A stretch of DNA of 50,309 nucleotides from Shigella phage Sfin-3: sequence record MN296515; one strand, given 5' to 3'. The translations under genes were made by a program, and so were the position numbers. The notes under the pieces were generated by a model. That model saw only the letters and a list, made by a program, of their open reading frames with translations. It ran no database searches and was not told the origin of the DNA. Shown here one piece after another: positions 25,950 through 46,841 of this stretch. Each line of letters begins with the position of its first letter. Within the stretch, counting starts at the first letter, position 1.

Positions 25950-26638
25950 TGTCATACGGTGCTTTTATAGATGTAAACGGAAACCCATTCATAACCCCGT
26001 TATCCACGCCATTCGCCTTATATGCGAGAGGGGAAATTCAATCAGTAAATGTTAGTGGTTCACAGGTTGCGGAGAGATATGTTCGGATACCTACAGGTGT
26101 TCCGGTTATAGCTTTTTGCAAAACAACAAACACGCAGCAGGGGACCGCGCTTTCAGCCTTTACTTTCAGAGACGGACCCAATGTTGGAACTGTTTACATA
26201 AGGGGGACAAATCCAGCAAACCAATCATACACGCTAACATACTACATATTTGCCATATTTGAGCAGTCACTACCGAGCTGGGGTATGGCAATATGGGATT
26301 CGTCAGGAAAGCTAGTGCTGACAAATGAGACAAAAGTCCTTAGTGATTTGGTTACAATTGGCACACCTGGATACGCTGGCGGTGGATTAAACATAGACAC
26401 AACACTCAGCGGAAGCTACGCAGTTGTCCCAACCATACTTGGCAACTATCAAATTGTTATCGGCACACTTCCAACTGGGCAACCCATAATAGGAAACTCA
26501 ACAGCAGGAAGTTCATGCAGGTACAACGGGAGCGCGACGAGAATAAATGCAGCAGCAACCACTGCGACGGGTCAGATAATGAACACCACTAACAATGGAA
26601 ATATCATAACAGCAATCAACACGTCAGCATACGACTAA
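25949..26638 (+). CDS. hypothetical protein downstream of J (Gly/Thr/Asn-rich)
   Basis: 229 aa; start overlaps upstream stop; followed by terminator. Confidence 0.5.
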   Translation: MSYGAFIDVNGNPFITPLSTPFALYARGEIQSVNVSGSQVAERYVRIPTGVPVIAFCKTTNTQQGTALSAFTFRDGPNVGTVYIRGTNPANQSYTLTYYIFAIFEQSLPSWGMAIWDSSGKLVLTNETKVLSDLVTIGTPGYAGGGLNIDTTLSGSYAVVPTILGNYQIVIGTLPTGQPIIGNSTAGSSCRYNGSATRINAAATTATGQIMNTTNNGNIITAINTSAYD

Positions 26639-26661
26639 GCCCCTTCCGGGGCTTTTCTTTT
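26639..26661 (+). terminator. rho-independent terminator at end of late operon
   Basis: GCCCC-ttcc-GGGGC then TTTTCTTTT; overlaps cor stop codon on the other strand. Confidence 0.6.
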
Positions 26662-26887
26662 ACATCGAGCAATCGTGAGACTTGAAGTTATTCTCTGATA
26701 CGTAATGGAATGAGAATGGATACCCAGCACGTAACAGCATCTCCTCTCCGCGCATCTTAGAGCCAAAAACGTAAACCGAGTACTCCGCGCCGCCTGATTC
26801 ATAAACTGCCGTACAAGTGCGCTCAGGCATTGATGAACAACCAGTCAGGATGAATGCCGCAGCAATAATGGTGATTAACTTTTTCAT
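26660..26887 (-). CDS. cor: Cor-like outer-membrane lipoprotein (FhuA-blocking superinfection exclusion)
   Basis: 75 aa; signal peptide plus lipobox LTGC; size, lipoprotein nature and position after tail genes match Cor of T1/phi80-type phages; own sigma70-like promoter. Confidence 0.65.
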   Translation of the reverse strand: MKKLITIIAAAFILTGCSSMPERTCTAVYESGGAEYSVYVFGSKMRGEEMLLRAGYPFSFHYVSENNFKSHDCSM

Positions 26888-26916
26888 TTGTATGTCCTCG
26901 TCGTTAGTGTGATTGC

Positions 26917-26945
26917 ATTGTATGTCGCATTTACTTTTATTGCAA
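26917..26945 (-). promoter_or_regulatory. sigma70-like promoter for cor (TTGCAA-17-TACAAT)
   Basis: Minus-strand -35 at 26940-26945 and -10 at 26917-26922; 30 nt upstream of cor ATG. Confidence 0.5.
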
Positions 26946-27353
26946 TAGAGCGATTACAATTTTTCGTGTAACAAGTGTCTATTTTTGTAACCGGAGCGGG
27001 TGTTACAAAATCCACCCCATACGACCGCAGAAGGATATGATAAAAACTCTATATAATATATATAGATAGATAATATTTAATTTTAGCTTTATATATATAA
27101 TTATTGTTGTGTAACAGTTGTCTATCGTGTAACTGGTGATTTGATTGATTCGTCAAATTTCTATCATATATGTTCAAAATTTAATCAATATGGATTCTAC
27201 TTGTAGCTATCTCTGTATTTCTAAGAAAAAGCGGTTACAAGTATTACACAGTAGACATCACATAAAAATAGACTTAAGTCATTGATTCCGTTAATGCTGG
27301 TTGTAACTTGAGCGATATAGACACGCTATTACACACCAATTACATGTATCCGA

Positions 27354-27381
27354 TTGACTAAACGCTGTTAATGGCTATAAT
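27354..27381 (+). promoter_or_regulatory. sigma70-like promoter for exonuclease/Erf/SSB operon (TTGACT-16-TATAAT)
   Basis: -35 27354-27359, -10 27376-27381; 32 nt upstream of ATG 27413. Confidence 0.55.
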
Positions 27382-27412
27382 GGATTCATCGTAAACGAGG
27401 GAGATAAACGAA

Positions 27413-28477
27413 ATGTTCCAGGTATTCACATCAAGTCAGCTTTCTAATGACGAGTATCATAGCAACGAAGGTTGGGCGGCAGAGTATGTAAGCGGTTCTA
27501 GCCTTGCAGAAATTTATCAGACTTGCCCGGCTAACTGGCGATTCAAGAAGAACGAGACTACTAAAGCGCTGGAGTTCGGCACTCAGTCGCACACTAACTT
27601 TGAGAGTCGAGATCTGTTTACTGCAACGTATGCGCGTTGTCCTGCTCCGTCAGAGTTTAAGGATCTGATTACTTCGCAGGCAGCACTGGCAGCAAAATTA
27701 AAATCTTTTGGCCTGAAAGGTACATCCGGTAAGCAGTACCCTGACCTCATCAAAATGATGGTTGATTGCGGTGAAGATCTCAATGTTCAATATCTTATTG
27801 AACTGATTGCTGAAGCTGAGGCGCGCGCTGAAGGAAAGCAACTGGTTGACGCTGATAAATATGATGCCTGTATGAAGATGAGGGCCATTCTTGAGCAAAA
27901 TCCCGATCATGAAGCGTGCATCAATAGCGAAACTGCGCAGCGTGAGATCTCAATTTTCGGTGAGATATCCGGCGTCAAGGTTAAGGTTCGACTTGACCAT
28001 TTGGACTACAAAGAGAATGTTCCAGGTCGTGTGCTGACTGGTTATGATGAGAATGGCGATCCGGTATTTGAAGACGTGATTTTTCCTGAAGCTCTGATTA
28101 TCACTGACTTCAAAACCACGATGAGCGCCAACCCGTTAGAGTTCCCGAGACTGGCATACAATCACGGGTATTATCTTAAAATGGCCTTACAGCATGACCT
28201 ATTGCGGCGTGCAATTCAGGCTGGAGCATTTGAAGGAAACTTCCCGGAAGATATTCCGATCGTAGTTCGATTGCTGGCACAGGAGAAAAAGGAACCTTAC
28301 ATTGCCCTTGCTTACCGCATGACTATGGAGCAAATCAGAATAGGTCGCAATCAGTATATTAGCGTGGTCCACACTTATAAGGCTTGCTCTGAGATGGACG
28401 TTTGGCCAGGATATGCTGGCGACGCAAGCGAGATCGAACTTGAAACGCCGTCATGGGTACGATATCAAAACAAGTAA
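27413..28477 (+). CDS. PD-(D/E)XK exonuclease (RecE/Cas4-like recombination nuclease)
   Basis: 354 aa; VRLDHL ... IITDFKTT (D...D/E-x-K core); first gene of exo/annealase/SSB operon. Confidence 0.55.
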   Translation: MFQVFTSSQLSNDEYHSNEGWAAEYVSGSSLAEIYQTCPANWRFKKNETTKALEFGTQSHTNFESRDLFTATYARCPAPSEFKDLITSQAALAAKLKSFGLKGTSGKQYPDLIKMMVDCGEDLNVQYLIELIAEAEARAEGKQLVDADKYDACMKMRAILEQNPDHEACINSETAQREISIFGEISGVKVKVRLDHLDYKENVPGRVLTGYDENGDPVFEDVIFPEALIITDFKTTMSANPLEFPRLAYNHGYYLKMALQHDLLRRAIQAGAFEGNFPEDIPIVVRLLAQEKKEPYIALAYRMTMEQIRIGRNQYISVVHTYKACSEMDVWPGYAGDASEIELETPSWVRYQNK

Positions 28478-31550: not shown

Positions 31551-31574
31551 ATAAAAAACCGCCCGAAGGCGGTT
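31551..31574 (-). terminator. minus-strand terminator after primase gene
   Basis: Minus-strand reading AACCGCC-ttcg-GGCGGTT followed by T6. Confidence 0.6.
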
Positions 31575-32508
31575 ATAGTAGGTCACTTGCTGAGAATAAC
31601 TTAGCTTGCATTCCTGAACGGTATCCTCCAGGATTCGGGATGATTATTTTTAATTGCCGGTCGTCAGCCATGTATAAAGTCTCCTTATCTGAAGGTTCGC
31701 ACGCCACTCTTACCTCGCGATCTCCTTTGTATCTGTACGCAACCATTTCGAGATTTTCAGGAGTGAAGCAGGCCCACACCTCTTGCTTTGTGTGAAATGC
31801 AATATGCTGAGCATCAATCCAATTAAGGCATAAGTAGATCGCTTTTTCAGTTTTACCAGTCACGGCAACCGAGCAACTTGTGTATTTCTTAGCGTAAAAT
31901 GACTCCCTTCCTTCCTCATCAATAATCAAAATATTGCAAAATTCATCATCAAGACCGTCCTCGTGTACAAGTTGACATGGTATGGTGTGAAATACGCTCT
32001 CGCCGCCATCCTCGCGACGTTTTACGCCAACGTCGAATGATTCGGTTGGTAGCGACTCAAACATGCTTAGAGGCGTGTTTACGCGCTTCTCTGTACGCTC
32101 CATGACTTTCATCACTGCCTCATGGTCTGCCATCATGACGTTTACGCCAGCTACCGGAGTGCGGCGCGCTTTCTTATTTGCCTTGACAATGTACTCCTGC
32201 GGAACTTTTCCGAGGAATCTCCCCAAGATGTTTATGCATTCGCTGTACGGCATACCAGTTAATTTCATCAACCAACCGATCCCGGAGTCATTGCCGCATG
32301 AGTTACAGATCGCACCGCCGTCTCCCGGAGTGTTTAGGTTGTCAGTCCAGCGAAAACGGTCTTTGCCGCCGCAGTTAGGGCAAGGCTGGTGCTTCTTGTT
32401 GAATACCTCGTTCGGTAATCCGCAGACGGACTGGAACGCATCGCGCCATAACCCCTTCATATACGGCAATACGTCCTCTTTCTGAAACATCATAAATTCT
32501 TCGTTCAC
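31573..32508 (-). CDS. DNA primase (zinc-ribbon + TOPRIM-like)
   Basis: 311 aa; CPNCGGKDRFRW...CNSCG zinc ribbon then acidic IIDEEG / EDGLDDEF motifs; GTG start 32508 with GGAG RBS (ATG 32493 alternative). Confidence 0.6.
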   Translation of the reverse strand: MNEEFMMFQKEDVLPYMKGLWRDAFQSVCGLPNEVFNKKHQPCPNCGGKDRFRWTDNLNTPGDGGAICNSCGNDSGIGWLMKLTGMPYSECINILGRFLGKVPQEYIVKANKKARRTPVAGVNVMMADHEAVMKVMERTEKRVNTPLSMFESLPTESFDVGVKRREDGGESVFHTIPCQLVHEDGLDDEFCNILIIDEEGRESFYAKKYTSCSVAVTGKTEKAIYLCLNWIDAQHIAFHTKQEVWACFTPENLEMVAYRYKGDREVRVACEPSDKETLYMADDRQLKIIIPNPGGYRSGMQAKLFSASDLL

Positions 32509-32568: not shown

Positions 32569-33021
32569 TTAACTAAAAATGCTATTGGTCGTTCCGATAT
32601 CTTCCTTCTTGACAACTCGCATAAACTTCTTGTTTTTGCAGCGCTTCTCAAGGCACTTGCCGTTCCCATCAAACTTCAGATCGAATCGCAGCCATGCGGC
32701 CCGAAATCCTTTGCAACCCTGTCGGCGATAAGCACGATGCGCCGCTTCAGCGCCTTGCCAGGAAATCATATTTCGATCCTTCCACCCTTGAACCGTCTGG
32801 TTGCTAACTTTCAGAGCCTTTGCGCAAGCCGCCGGACCACCATAATATTCAATAAGAGCATCCAATCGCGCTCTCAGTCCTGCGCGCGTTTCTTCTTTAT
32901 GGATATAAAATCCGCAGCGCTGGCGAGGCTTTTTATCTTTACCGCGTCGTGTTCCGTTGTTACCATTGATGTGACGTTTATCGATTTCACCAGTAGACTC
33001 TGCGATACGCTTCATATTCAT
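32569..33021 (-). CDS. Cro/YdaS-like HTH DNA-binding protein
   Basis: ATG 33021 with GGAGA RBS (track start 33093 would overlap the promoter); central ...ACAKALKVSNQTVQGW...RFDL resembles YdaS/Cro-type HTH; basic N-terminus. Confidence 0.5.
   Translation of the reverse strand: MNMKRIAESTGEIDKRHINGNNGTRRGKDKKPRQRCGFYIHKEETRAGLRARLDALIEYYGGPAACAKALKVSNQTVQGWKDRNMISWQGAEAAHRAYRRQGCKGFRAAWLRFDLKFDGNGKCLEKRCKNKKFMRVVKKEDIGTTNSIFS
32570..32584 (-). promoter_or_regulatory. degenerate palindrome copy (TAGCA-ttttt-AGTTA) at 3' end of Cro-like gene
   Basis: Encodes the C-terminal NSIFS* of the Cro-like protein; followed on minus strand by terminator 32522-32559. Confidence 0.3.
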
Positions 33022-40856: not shown

Positions 40857-42425
40857 TTAACCCATCAGTCTAGGATTGATGAAAACAATATCATCAATGC
40901 GGCAAGTGTAGTTCATCTCTTCGAGCGTGATCAGCAGGCTATCGATTCGCTCAGATACTTTCTGTTGACCGTTGAACGGAGTAACGTTCCGGCACTTTGC
41001 AACGATGCTATGAATAGGAGCGCGCCCTTTATTCTTCTTTGCGATCTCAGTGATAACATCAATCAGCTTACGAGATTCAGCCTCATCACCAGCATACCCG
41101 GCAGCGCTGGCAGACGACAGATAAGTCCTGGAAAGCTCATTGAAGATCATGATTGCTTCCTGCATTGTTTCAAGGTCAATCTCACGGTTGGAACGGTTCG
41201 GTGATTCACCCTCCCAATTCTTGATCGTGTGGAGAACTGAAGCAATACGCAAGGCGTGCTTATCGAACTTGCCGAGATGACCGCGTAGCATTGAGTGAGA
41301 GTATTTCCCACCTGCGGCGAAATCCGGTTCCATCGCCTGACGCGAAAGGTTTAATTCACGCATAGCATTACGGCTTACAGAAAGAACAACGTTTTCCTCC
41401 TTCATAATGTTGTGCACGAGTCGATAATATTTACTCACCAATCCTCGATCGACTTCCTTATACAGTGCATCACCATTTTCATCGCAAAGGATACGAGTGC
41501 CTAAAAGAGGTTCCTCACGAACAAGAAGGAAGCGCTCAGATACGCCGATTCCTCGTTGGCCTGCGTCCATGATACCCTTGATTGTTTCATCCTGCGCAAT
41601 AACGCAGATGGAACCGACCGGGCAAAGGGACAAGTTGTTATCCTGGTTGGAACGCGCTACCTCCATATGGTTTTTATCCCACGCCTTAAGGATAAGCTCA
41701 CTATTTGATTTCTTGTCTGAACCACCATAAGTCAGGCCGAGCAATGTATTGATTGCTGTCGCCTCATCAGAGATTACGGAGAAATGACCTTGAACAGCGG
41801 CTACCTTCGCAAGACCTTCAGGTGTAGGATCTGATACCGCGAAAACAATATCAGCCATCTTCTTGATCTTCTCTTCCAGTTTTTCCTTGTCCTCGTACAG
41901 CGCCGCCGTCGTGTTACCCTTCGGGTCGTTTTTAATTTCCTTCTCGACCTGACGTAGCTGACTGGTTAAACGGATACGTTCCTTTTTTCGCTCTTCATTC
42001 AGTCGCTGAATCTCTGCGCGCATAGGCGTAATCGCTGCGGAGTTAATCGCAGATTTACCTGTTGAAGGTGGCTGGCTGATTACCATGTAAAGAGCGGTAG
42101 GTTGTTCTTCTCCGTGATATTGCACCCAAAACTTCCCGAGCATCGCGGCTGAGATGCACCCAATGAAATGAGCGTACGCAGACGAAACAGGGAACTGTAC
42201 AGACTCGGCCTTTGCTTTTGCATATTCGAATACCAGGTTATCGCCACCTAACGAAATCAGAGGGAACTTATCGTTGCCGCTATTGATATCGATCGGATCT
42301 TGCCAAAATGAAACTGAGTCACCATAGCTGTTTTCACGAATTGCGATTGCCACCGGATTAACTCCAGTGCTATTGGCGATCTCAATAATCTGTTGGTAAT
42401 TCAGTTTTGGCTTAATATTAAACAT
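40857..42425 (-). CDS. P-loop NTPase (Walker A/B), putative replication/helicase-like ATPase
   Basis: ATG 42425 with AAGGAG RBS (track TTG 42488 is inside promoter hairpin); Walker A QPPSTGKSA, Walker B FSVISDEA; 522 aa. Confidence 0.6.
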   Translation of the reverse strand: MFNIKPKLNYQQIIEIANSTGVNPVAIAIRENSYGDSVSFWQDPIDINSGNDKFPLISLGGDNLVFEYAKAKAESVQFPVSSAYAHFIGCISAAMLGKFWVQYHGEEQPTALYMVISQPPSTGKSAINSAAITPMRAEIQRLNEERKKERIRLTSQLRQVEKEIKNDPKGNTTAALYEDKEKLEEKIKKMADIVFAVSDPTPEGLAKVAAVQGHFSVISDEATAINTLLGLTYGGSDKKSNSELILKAWDKNHMEVARSNQDNNLSLCPVGSICVIAQDETIKGIMDAGQRGIGVSERFLLVREEPLLGTRILCDENGDALYKEVDRGLVSKYYRLVHNIMKEENVVLSVSRNAMRELNLSRQAMEPDFAAGGKYSHSMLRGHLGKFDKHALRIASVLHTIKNWEGESPNRSNREIDLETMQEAIMIFNELSRTYLSSASAAGYAGDEAESRKLIDVITEIAKKNKGRAPIHSIVAKCRNVTPFNGQQKVSERIDSLLITLEEMNYTCRIDDIVFINPRLMG

Positions 42426-46188: not shown

Positions 46189-46233
46189 ATCATACACTGC
46201 CAGCCTGACCAGGTCGTTAGCAAAAAATGCTAT
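46189..46233 (-). promoter_or_regulatory. composite promoter module, minus strand (perfect TAGCA-ttttt-TGCTA, 24 nt, -10 TATGAT)
   Basis: Palindrome 46219-46233; -10 46189-46194; ATG 46158. Confidence 0.5.
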
Positions 46234-46433
46234 TCCAATAGTTGCTCATTATTCCACCAGTAATGGAATATCTGGAATAATTGCGATCCCGATTGATCTC
46301 GAATGATGAAATGTGATTGTTGCATGATGTGCAACTGTTGATGTGATTGTTGCTTGGAATGCAATGATTGTGAGAGGGAGGATTTAGTGTTACCCGGTTC
46401 GCCTGGTAGTCATCTCCATTTTTAGCAAAACGT

Positions 46434-46448
46434 GCTATCGATTACACT
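46434..46448 (-). promoter_or_regulatory. palindrome copy (TAGCA-cgttt-TGCTA) without evident -10
   Basis: Minus-strand orientation in intergenic region B; no TATAAT-like hexamer at 22-24 nt. Confidence 0.35.
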
Positions 46449-46754
46449 TTAACTTGTCACGACTGTAATATTTGTCTAGAATCGCACTTGTGACAAAATT
46501 ACGCACTGTGACGCATAACAATAGACATGTAGATATATGTATATATATAATATATATAGTGTTTTTTTATTTATATATATAGATAATCATATTGTAATGG
46601 TTGTGTATAGCCGTCTTACATTGTCTAGCGTACTGTTGGCATATTTCTATCTGCATGTTTATATATACAGTACTTTTTTGAGAGCCATATATTTCTATAT
46701 GGACCCTAGACAGCTAGACAAATGTTACACAGCTTAAAATTGGCTCGCAGGCAT

Positions 46755-46783
46755 TGACAGCCCTACATTGCGCCGTCACAATG
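46755..46783 (+). promoter_or_regulatory. weak sigma70-like promoter candidate (TTGACA-17-CACAAT)
   Basis: -35 46755-46760 perfect, -10 46778-46783 poor; in AT-rich region B upstream of gene 46842. Confidence 0.3.
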
Positions 46784-46841
46784 GCAATTGTTGACATGTT
46801 ATGACAACATTTACACATCAATAGACAAATAAGGATGAATT

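Follow-up and report, generated by a model that had tools for sequence, protein, structure and literature searches.

A candidate replication origin, present as two paralogous modules upstream of early operons, in the T1-like Shigella phage Sfin-3

Origins of replication in which short repeats lie beside an A+T-rich segment are a well-known kind of element, and a module of this layout occupies region A, the 525-bp gap between cor and the exonuclease gene exo in the genome of Shigella phage Sfin-3 (MN296515; the whole stretch of 50,309 nucleotides is referred to here as the window). The closest proven analogue that we could verify is the ori/crr pair of satellite phage P4, taken from the annotation and sequence of NC_001609. 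Region A shares with it short repeats in both orientations, spaced at 9-11 bp and adjoining AT-rich DNA, as well as the occurrence of the same repeats in two separate regions, here regions A and B, a pairing found in five T1-type genomes. The T1-type primase moreover carries the zinc ribbon of the P4 alpha protein, and the TGTTCAC repeat of the Tempevirinae agrees with P4's 8-bp repeat TGTTCACC at seven of eight bases. Sfin-3 differs in using TGTAAY and TGTCTA instead of the type 1 repeat TGTTCACC, and no homologue of the C-terminal DNA-binding domain of alpha was recognizable by sequence in this phage. Primase, helicase and candidate binder are separate genes in the T1-type phages, the helicase being an MCM-like DUF3987 protein, and each T1-type module has an AT core and a downstream promoter of its own. 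We consequently regard the relation to P4 as one of functional analogy, not of membership.

Other described systems resemble the locus in part. The origins of staphylococcal pathogenicity islands (SaPI) and of lactococcal phages consist of 6-8 bp repeats that flank an AT-rich segment in a non-coding gap of about 0.5 kb at promoters, as is the case here, and their repeat sequence varies between related elements, matched to the cognate helicase or initiator. The T1-type module differs from them in occurring as two paralogous copies per genome, in being known from sequence only, and in the unrelated host and replication proteins. Bacillus phage SPP1, a virulent siphovirus with pac packaging, has two separated origin regions, oriL and oriR, each with initiator boxes and an AT-rich segment; oriL lies inside a gene, the boxes are bound by G38P, and the function has been shown biochemically. 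Neither the SPP1 boxes nor G38P are related to the T1-type module. The OL/OR regions of lambdoid phages and N15 offer a different likeness, namely two paralogous control regions of early operons, a phage protein with a Cro fold and, in region A, a single operator-like inverted repeat (26983-27010). However, lambdoid operators are three palindromes of 14-18 bp that overlap promoters, whereas the roughly 15 hexamers of region A surround an AT core, most of them as phased triplets in direct orientation, and the inverted repeat of region A lies between the promoters. The text of PMC6649833 does not contain the N15 Cro operator sequence.

The Sfin-3 genome is that of a complete, circularly permuted Tunavirus (T1-like, Drexlerviridae), and 64 phage records, T1 among them, match the 1.1 kb around region A at 90-99% identity. 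In T1 the gap is flanked by cor (ST30) on one side and, on the other, by exonuclease VIII (ST29), beyond which lie erf and an ssb-like gene. We favor the interpretation, with a probability of roughly 0.5, that the module in region A is a replication origin of the iteron-plus-unwinding-element type represented by P4 ori/crr, coupled to an early promoter. We regard it as the strongest candidate so far for the origin of the T1-type phages, which is still unmapped. The features on which this interpretation draws are collected in Table 1.

Table 1. Positions of the repeats, AT cores, promoters and genes discussed in the text, in window coordinates
Feature	Position	Strand	Sequence or remarks
cor	26660-26887	-	left neighbor of region A
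Region A	26888-27412		525-bp gap, cor to exo
exo	27413-28477	+	right neighbor of region A
cor promoter, sigma-70-like	26917-26945	-	TTGCAA-N17-TACAAT, 9/12 matches
Iteron copy 1	26966-26982		GTGTAACAAGTGTCTAT
Triplet L1	26967-26991	+	TGTAAC-N3-TGTCTA-N4-TGTAAC; starts 26967/26976/26986; left of core; includes copy 1
Inverted repeat	26983-27010		TTTTGTAAC-N10-GTTACAAAA; perfect 9-bp arms
Central block	27035-27190		155 bp
AT core, candidate DNA unwinding element	27049-27103		TATATAATATATATAGATAGATAATATTTAATTTTAGCTTTATATATATAATTATT
Iteron copy 2	27109-27125		GTGTAACAGTTGTCTAT
Triplet C	27110-27133	+	TGTAAC-N3-TGTCTA-N3-TGTAAC; starts 27110/27119/27128; directly right of core; includes copy 2
46-codon open reading frame	27145-27285	+	CPTT1_049 in T1
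Triplet R1	27234-27257	-	GTTACA-N3-ATTACA-N3-TAGACA; starts 27234/27243/27252; includes copy 3
Iteron copy 3	27243-27258		ATTACACAGTAGACAT
IHF-consensus site	27275-27287	-	AATCAATGACTTA; between R1 and R2; candidate bending site
Array R2	27302-27344	-	TAGACA-N4-ATTACA-N5-ATTACA; starts 27318/27328/27339; includes copy 4
Iteron copy 4	27317-27336		ATAGACACGCTATTACACAC
exo-erf-ssb promoter, sigma-70-like	27354-27381	+	TTGACT-N16-TATAAT, 11/12 matches
Primase	31573-32508	-	T1 ST24 homologue; P4-alpha-type zinc ribbon; Pfam Zn_Ribbon_Prim, E 5.5e-16
Candidate binder, Cro-fold helix-turn-helix protein	32569-33021	-	T1 ST23 homologue; between primase and second helicase
Candidate binder/initiator helicase	40857-42425	-	DUF3987 protein; T1 ST9 homologue; Pfam DUF3987, E 9e-42
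Region B	46198-46841	+	paralogous module in divergent gap between two early gene arms
Region B, + hexamers	46464/46473, then 46593/46604/46622	+	
Region B, AT core	about 46525-46590		least stable duplex window of genome
Region B, - hexamers	46707/46715/46724 and 46822	-	

The initial annotation had described region A as four copies of a symmetric bipartite iteron, TGTAA followed by TGTCTA, around an A/T core. All four copies are present where it had placed them, although the symmetric bipartite unit did not hold: the true repeating unit is a single hexamer, TGTAAY or TGTCTA, phased in four triplets with a start-to-start spacing of 9-11 bp, which is about one helical turn. With its halves in swapped order, copy 3 is no reverse complement of copies 1 and 2. 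The repeats do flank the AT core, but the center of the inverted symmetry sits to the right of the core and not on it. Triplet C and R1 form an inverted pair that is 86% complementary (repeat I6), and R2, which opens with a lone TGTAAC on the plus strand at 27302, ends 9 bp ahead of the -35 hexamer of the exo promoter. Extra single hexamers make up the inverted repeat at 26983-27010. The consensus WATCAANNNNTTR for the integration host factor (IHF) is matched six times in the whole genome, one of these matches being the site in region A. Read from left to right, the module has the order plus-strand triplet, core, plus-strand triplet, about 100 bp, minus-strand triplet, IHF-like site, minus-strand triplet and sigma-70 promoter. 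The divergent sigma-70-like promoters that had been predicted for cor and exo were both found, flanking the gap.

The concentration of hexamers in region A was compared with that in 2000 dinucleotide shuffles of the region. Of 56 genomic copies of TGTAAY on both strands, 11 are in region A, a number that none of the shuffles reached (mean 1.6), and the 18 genomic copies of TGTCTA include four in region A and six in region B. Taken together, the two words account for 15 hexamers in 525 bp against 1.9 expected, an enrichment of about 8-fold that was also not attained in any of the 2000 shuffles. An unbiased k-mer count returned the same top words. The heptamer ATATATA is confined to the two regions, with 7 of its 20 genomic occurrences in region A and 13 in region B.

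The almost pure A/T core that had been noted initially is indeed present, with an A+T content of 90%. In terms of duplex stability it is the second least stable 60-bp window of the genome, at -54.7 kcal compared to a mean of -82 (standard deviation 4.9), and only the core of region B is less stable. The same relation was found in each of five genomes (Sfin-3, T1, KpCol1, DTL and TLS), where no other 60-bp windows are as unstable as the two cores, with values of -53 to -58 kcal and genome means of -81 to -86 (standard deviation about 5), a distance of some 5.5 standard deviations; the window ranked third exceeds the cores in stability by about 10 kcal. The potential of the AT core to form a hairpin or cruciform did not differ from that of shuffled sequences (z = -0.3).

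An alignment of 14 distinct Tunavirus versions of region A showed that 87% of the hexamer columns in the left flank and 95% of those in the right flank are invariant, compared to 46% and 63% of the neighboring columns (Fisher p = 2e-4 and 2e-5, respectively). Within L1 the hexamers are invariant and the spacers vary; triplet C is nearly invariant, GTTACA and TAGACA of R1 are invariant, and so are all four hexamers of R2. The arms TTTTGTAAC and GTTACAAAA are also unchanged around a variable spacer, and an 8/9 version of this repeat occurs in the distant relative L024. About 90% of the columns are invariant in the central block, which comprises the AT core, triplet C and a GGTGATTT segment; words like GGTGATTT are also found to the right of the core in the Tempevirinae and in LF82-10. 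The promoter blocks are 88-92% (cor) and 100% (exo) invariant, and the exo promoter words TTGACTAAA...GGCTAnAAT are kept in several other lineages. Variation at the IHF site falls mostly on the four N positions, with the specified positions staying within the consensus in 13 of the 14 sequences (L016 alters a base of the TTR triplet). In T1, TGTATA takes the place of TGTCTA at two sites in region A and at two in region B. The hexamers thus behave in this phylogenetic footprint as binding sites of a protein would. In SH6, pSf-2, ISF001/002 and the Sfin phages, similarity to the window begins only at about 26838, inside the 5′ part of cor, and these records annotate a lipoprotein or hypothetical protein there and not Cor. 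The left edge of region A is therefore a recombination junction, at which the neighboring gene is exchanged and the module stays.

Region B carries the same hexamers as region A in the same succession of orientations. A local alignment of the two covers 72 columns, the cores included, with 82% identity and a score of 50, compared to a maximum of 32-37 for shuffled sequences. The claim that region A is a second, separate control system must accordingly be divided. It is separate from the promoter-proximal, 27-copy repeat that the initial annotation had called a regulon, of which no copy (ATAGCACNNNTTGNTAAA) falls within 26888-27412, but it is not confined to one gap, since region B is its paralogue.

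The left part of region B, at 46260-46400, has repeats of its own (TGTGATTGTTGC, ATGCAA / TGCAATGATT and TGGAATA) around position 46319, 200 bp to the left of the core, to which the end of the T1 record maps; this is base 1 of that record, where the annotated terminal repeat of T1 begins. Words akin to GATTGTTGC / TGCAATGATT are also present in the region B counterpart of DTL (L056 7600-7700). This segment is a candidate pac or small-terminase recognition region, distinct from the hexamer module. At 46700-46730 Sfin-3 has TAGACA-GC-TAGACA-AA-TGTTACAC, and the aligned part of T1 (L003, around 360-400) has three tandem copies of CGATTAACA with a 9-bp period, so that the promoter-proximal array can be replaced by another phased repeat within one genus.

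We also compared the locus with more distant relatives. The DNA of region A has no blastn match outside the genus, yet the arrangement is kept even in phages without detectable DNA similarity, and the conservation of the iterons is borne out. Non-coding gaps of 420-585 bp precede the exo operon in Tlsvirus, Warwickvirus, Webervirus, Loudonvirus, Rogunavirus and LF82-10, the gene on the other side being variable, and all of them contain a core of the TATATA...(ATT)n...TATAT type. The orientation pattern is retained as well, with plus-strand repeats, core, plus-strand repeats, about 100 bp, minus-strand repeats and promoter. The repeats themselves are specific to each lineage: TGTAAC with TGTCTA or TGTATA in the Tunavirinae-like contigs L023 and L024, TGTTC-type words in the Tempevirinae, GTAAGAT in Webervirus, and GCGTAAC together with GTATAC in the Braunvirinae and Rogunavirinae. 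Triplet L1 is also present in L024, and a GTGTAAC/ATGTAAC word to the right of the core recurs in AKS96, LF82-10, DTL and L024. Two modules per genome, a layout seen in all of the Drexlerviridae lineages examined, were found in Sfin-3, T1, Webervirus KpCol1, Loudonvirus DTL and TLS. The two modules of one genome align with local scores of 50-165 (82-91% identity over 72-127 columns), compared to 26-47 for pairs from different genera. Likeness within a genome combined with divergence between genera is what would be predicted if one genome-specific factor reads both modules; the same result would be expected from gene conversion between the copies. In KpCol1 the exo block runs in the opposite direction with respect to the structural genes, and the orientation of each core relative to the operon downstream of it is retained.

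These comparisons also bear on what might bind the hexamers. Phages of one host use different hexamers at the same positions, and the binder is therefore most likely encoded by the phage and co-evolving with its sites. Two Sfin-3 proteins are leads in this respect, and no more than that. The first is the DUF3987 helicase. Its AlphaFold2 model (predicted local distance difference test score, pLDDT, 89.9) shows an MCM-like AAA+ fold, and residues 447-516, within the last 75 residues, have the topology of a winged helix. Its best fold matches in the PDB are the MCM2-7 subunits, both eukaryotic and archaeal MCM, with the Rep protein of adeno-associated virus further down. Initiator helicases are built in this way, with a DNA-binding domain attached to a helicase core. 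The other is the ST23-like protein, which is annotated as a transcriptional regulator in T1 and has weak Pfam hits to P22_Cro/YdaS. The ordered part of its model (pLDDT 83) is closest in fold to the all-alpha Cro proteins of Xfaso-1 and N15 (probability 0.96-1.0, target-normalised TM-score 0.62-0.73). All of the sequence homologues found for it belong to T1-like phages or metagenome contigs. The putative recognition helix of the protein is not the same from genus to genus, and a basic arm at its N-terminus is invariant. The N-terminal segment, STGEIDKRxINGNNGTRRGKDKKxRKR, is nearly invariant, predicted to be disordered and more conserved than the helix-turn-helix itself. By sequence, no PDB match was found for either protein. 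The winged helix of the helicase and the Cro fold of the ST23-like protein may be considered candidate hexamer binders.

If region A is an origin, a phage-encoded protein would bind the phased hexamer arrays and oligomerise on one face of the DNA, with bending assisted by IHF, and divergent transcription would supply negative supercoiling between the promoters. Binding, bending and supercoiling together could then open the AT core, at which the phage helicase and primase would load and the host polymerase would start replication. The promoter-proximal triplet may at the same time tune the transcription of exo-erf-ssb. Region B would then act either as another origin or, like crr in relation to P4 ori, as an enhancer. 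We extend this proposal, somewhat more tentatively, to the family as a whole: all Drexlerviridae may replicate from paired, paralogous origins that evolve in concert, or from one origin and a crr-like enhancer. Helically phased 6-bp repeats would surround a (TA)n/(ATT)n unwinding element, and the lineage-specific repeats would be read by a co-evolving phage protein, either the MCM-like helicase through its winged helix or the Cro-fold protein with its invariant basic arm.

Several observations weigh against an origin. Initiation at region A is a proposal derived from sequence, and the GC skew of the genome tracks gene orientation only and gives no origin signal. Region A contains no GATC, which occurs about 5 times per kb in the genome, and no perfect DnaA box; TTWTNCACA is missing from both A and B and is found only once in the genome. 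Region A is therefore not oriC-like. When P4 alpha was compared with all open reading frames of this genome using phmmer, only the N-terminal zinc ribbon of the primase matched (E 6e-11), and the C-terminal origin-binding domain of alpha had no sequence homologue among them. The module lies 4-5 kb from the primase gene in Sfin-3, T1, DTL and TLS and is adjacent to it only in Webervirus. Furthermore, a Cro fold in the candidate binder together with two paralogous operator regions is the pattern of lambda OL/OR, and modules placed directly upstream of early operons with conserved polarity, the last triplet abutting the -35 hexamer, fit transcription control equally well.

The alternative to which these last points lead is that the modules serve early transcription alone, without any role in replication. 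The initial annotation had named replication origins and repressor-controlled early regions alike as having this layout, and the sequence fits either. The triplets would be operators or enhancer sites, most simply for the ST23-like protein, which would switch the early operons at A and B much as Cro and CI do at OL/OR, and the AT core would be an UP-element, a bendable spacer or a cluster of promoters. A repeat abuts the -35 hexamer of the conserved exo promoter in every lineage, whatever the repeat sequence, and TAGACA and GTTACA both resemble the -35 hexamer TTGACA. The region B core itself holds a good promoter match, TAGACA-N18-TATAAT (11/12), which likewise speaks against an origin; the A core, by contrast, lacks any canonical or acceptable -35/-10 pair, yet is the most conserved part of the module. 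The regulator annotation of the ST23-like protein in T1 and the operator-like TTTTGTAAC-N10-GTTACAAAA repeat are in keeping with such a switch, but about 15 sites spread over 400 bp, mostly more than 100 bp from either promoter, exceed the requirements of known phage operators. None of the hexamers overlaps the -35 or -10 element of the exo or cor promoter. A role as spacer would leave unexplained why the cores are the stability minima of five genomes, and the module lies outside any divergent promoter gap in Stevie and Webervirus; in Webervirus it is found directly downstream of the genes for the Cro-fold regulator and the primase (KpCol1 L006/L010, 7089-7583). We also considered the hexamers as plain promoter elements and rejected this, since apart from one 10/12 match on the minus strand (TAGACA-N17-TGTAAT, 26981-26953) the copies have no partner at promoter spacing. 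Control of transcription alone appears less likely to us than an origin, although it is the strongest of the alternatives, and the two roles are not exclusive: an origin and a transcription-control region could reside in the same module.

The remaining explanations are considerably less probable than either of these. A role in another DNA transaction, such as a pac-like packaging site, a recombination hot spot for exo and erf, or a signal for DNA entry, might be suspected from the T1 record end inside region B and from the attachment of region A to the recombination operon in all lineages. The T1 end, however, is in a different sub-region of B, whose repeats (TGATTGTTGC / ATGCAA) are absent from A; region A itself is some 19 kb away from this end and remote from terS; a single pac site, not two, is what headful packaging requires; and the layout of hexamers plus core matches no known pac site or recombination signal. 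We regard this role as improbable. Recognition by a host protein, either DnaA at the A-boxes, which resemble TTWTNCACA with one mismatch, or a response regulator on phased direct repeats, is still less probable. Direct repeats phased at 9-10 bp are typical of OmpR/PhoB-type regulators, the IHF consensus is conserved, and one-mismatch DnaA-box matches number four in A and four in B against about one expected in each. These hits are, however, the A-boxes themselves, whose invariant part is TGTAAC and not the CACA end, and copies such as TTGTAACC and GGTTACAAG are not DnaA-like. Other Drexlerviridae on the same host carry different hexamers at the same positions, and together with the box search this led us to reject both DnaA and an OmpR-type host regulator. 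A blastn search of E. coli genomes and plasmids with 11-base words gave no match to region A, so that no satellite or plasmid with the module exists in those collections. Finally, there is very little to recommend the view of the gap as the gene of a small protein or small RNA, with repeats that are incidental. The 46-codon open reading frame is open in all 14 Tunavirus sequences and is annotated, with a ribosome-binding site, as CPTT1_049 in the T1 record AY216660. Substitutions are nevertheless distributed 8:13:12 over codon positions 1:2:3, and almost every one of them is an amino acid change, indicating that the frame is not evolving as a protein; it has no Pfam hit, and there is no Rfam match in 26500-27600 up to E = 1. 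The frame would also explain neither the repeats outside it nor the architecture shared by the family, and CPTT1_049 is probably an annotation artefact.

The 27-copy repeat that is missing from region A corresponds to the 21-nucleotide intergenic repeat of the Drexlerviridae, aaATAGCACnnnTTGnTAAAA, which was described for TLS and the function of which was listed as an open question (PMC11447400). Both it and the region A module are conserved non-coding repeats of T1-like phages, but they are different systems. In Sfin-3 the 27 copies of this repeat (ATAGCACnnnTTGnTAAA) compare with 0.57 expected, most of them point along the direction of the adjacent gene, and the sites include 1854, 2374, 3669, 31493, 35544, 40319, 44848, 46421, 47372 and 49133.

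With regard to earlier work, an origin is discussed in two genome papers on T1-like phages, both of which report none: the SU57 genome paper found no oriC-like sequence (PMC7718038) and the TLS genome paper found no lambda-type iterons (PMC11447400). The modules are not described in the accessible papers on T1-like phages that we checked, and an earlier mention in the 2004 T1 genome paper (PMID 14972552) is possible; our search for literature on the T1 origin, a T1 transcript map and the P4 iteron sequence found nothing usable. This instance of the element, and its family-wide organization in two copies with lineage-specific repeats, thus appear to be undescribed.

T1 belongs to the original set of T phages and is notorious as a contaminant of laboratories. 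Two precise candidate sites, a defined set of hexamers, two candidate binders and a comparative series of repeats now make the question of its origin directly testable. Should the modules prove to be operators instead, they would define the early regulatory switch of the Drexlerviridae, which is likewise undescribed. If they are origins, a cloned module could serve as an origin-titration tool against T1 contamination or as a phage-dependent replicon, and region A and its counterparts would constitute the first origin defined for this classic group of phages, together with a natural series of matched iteron-initiator specificities.

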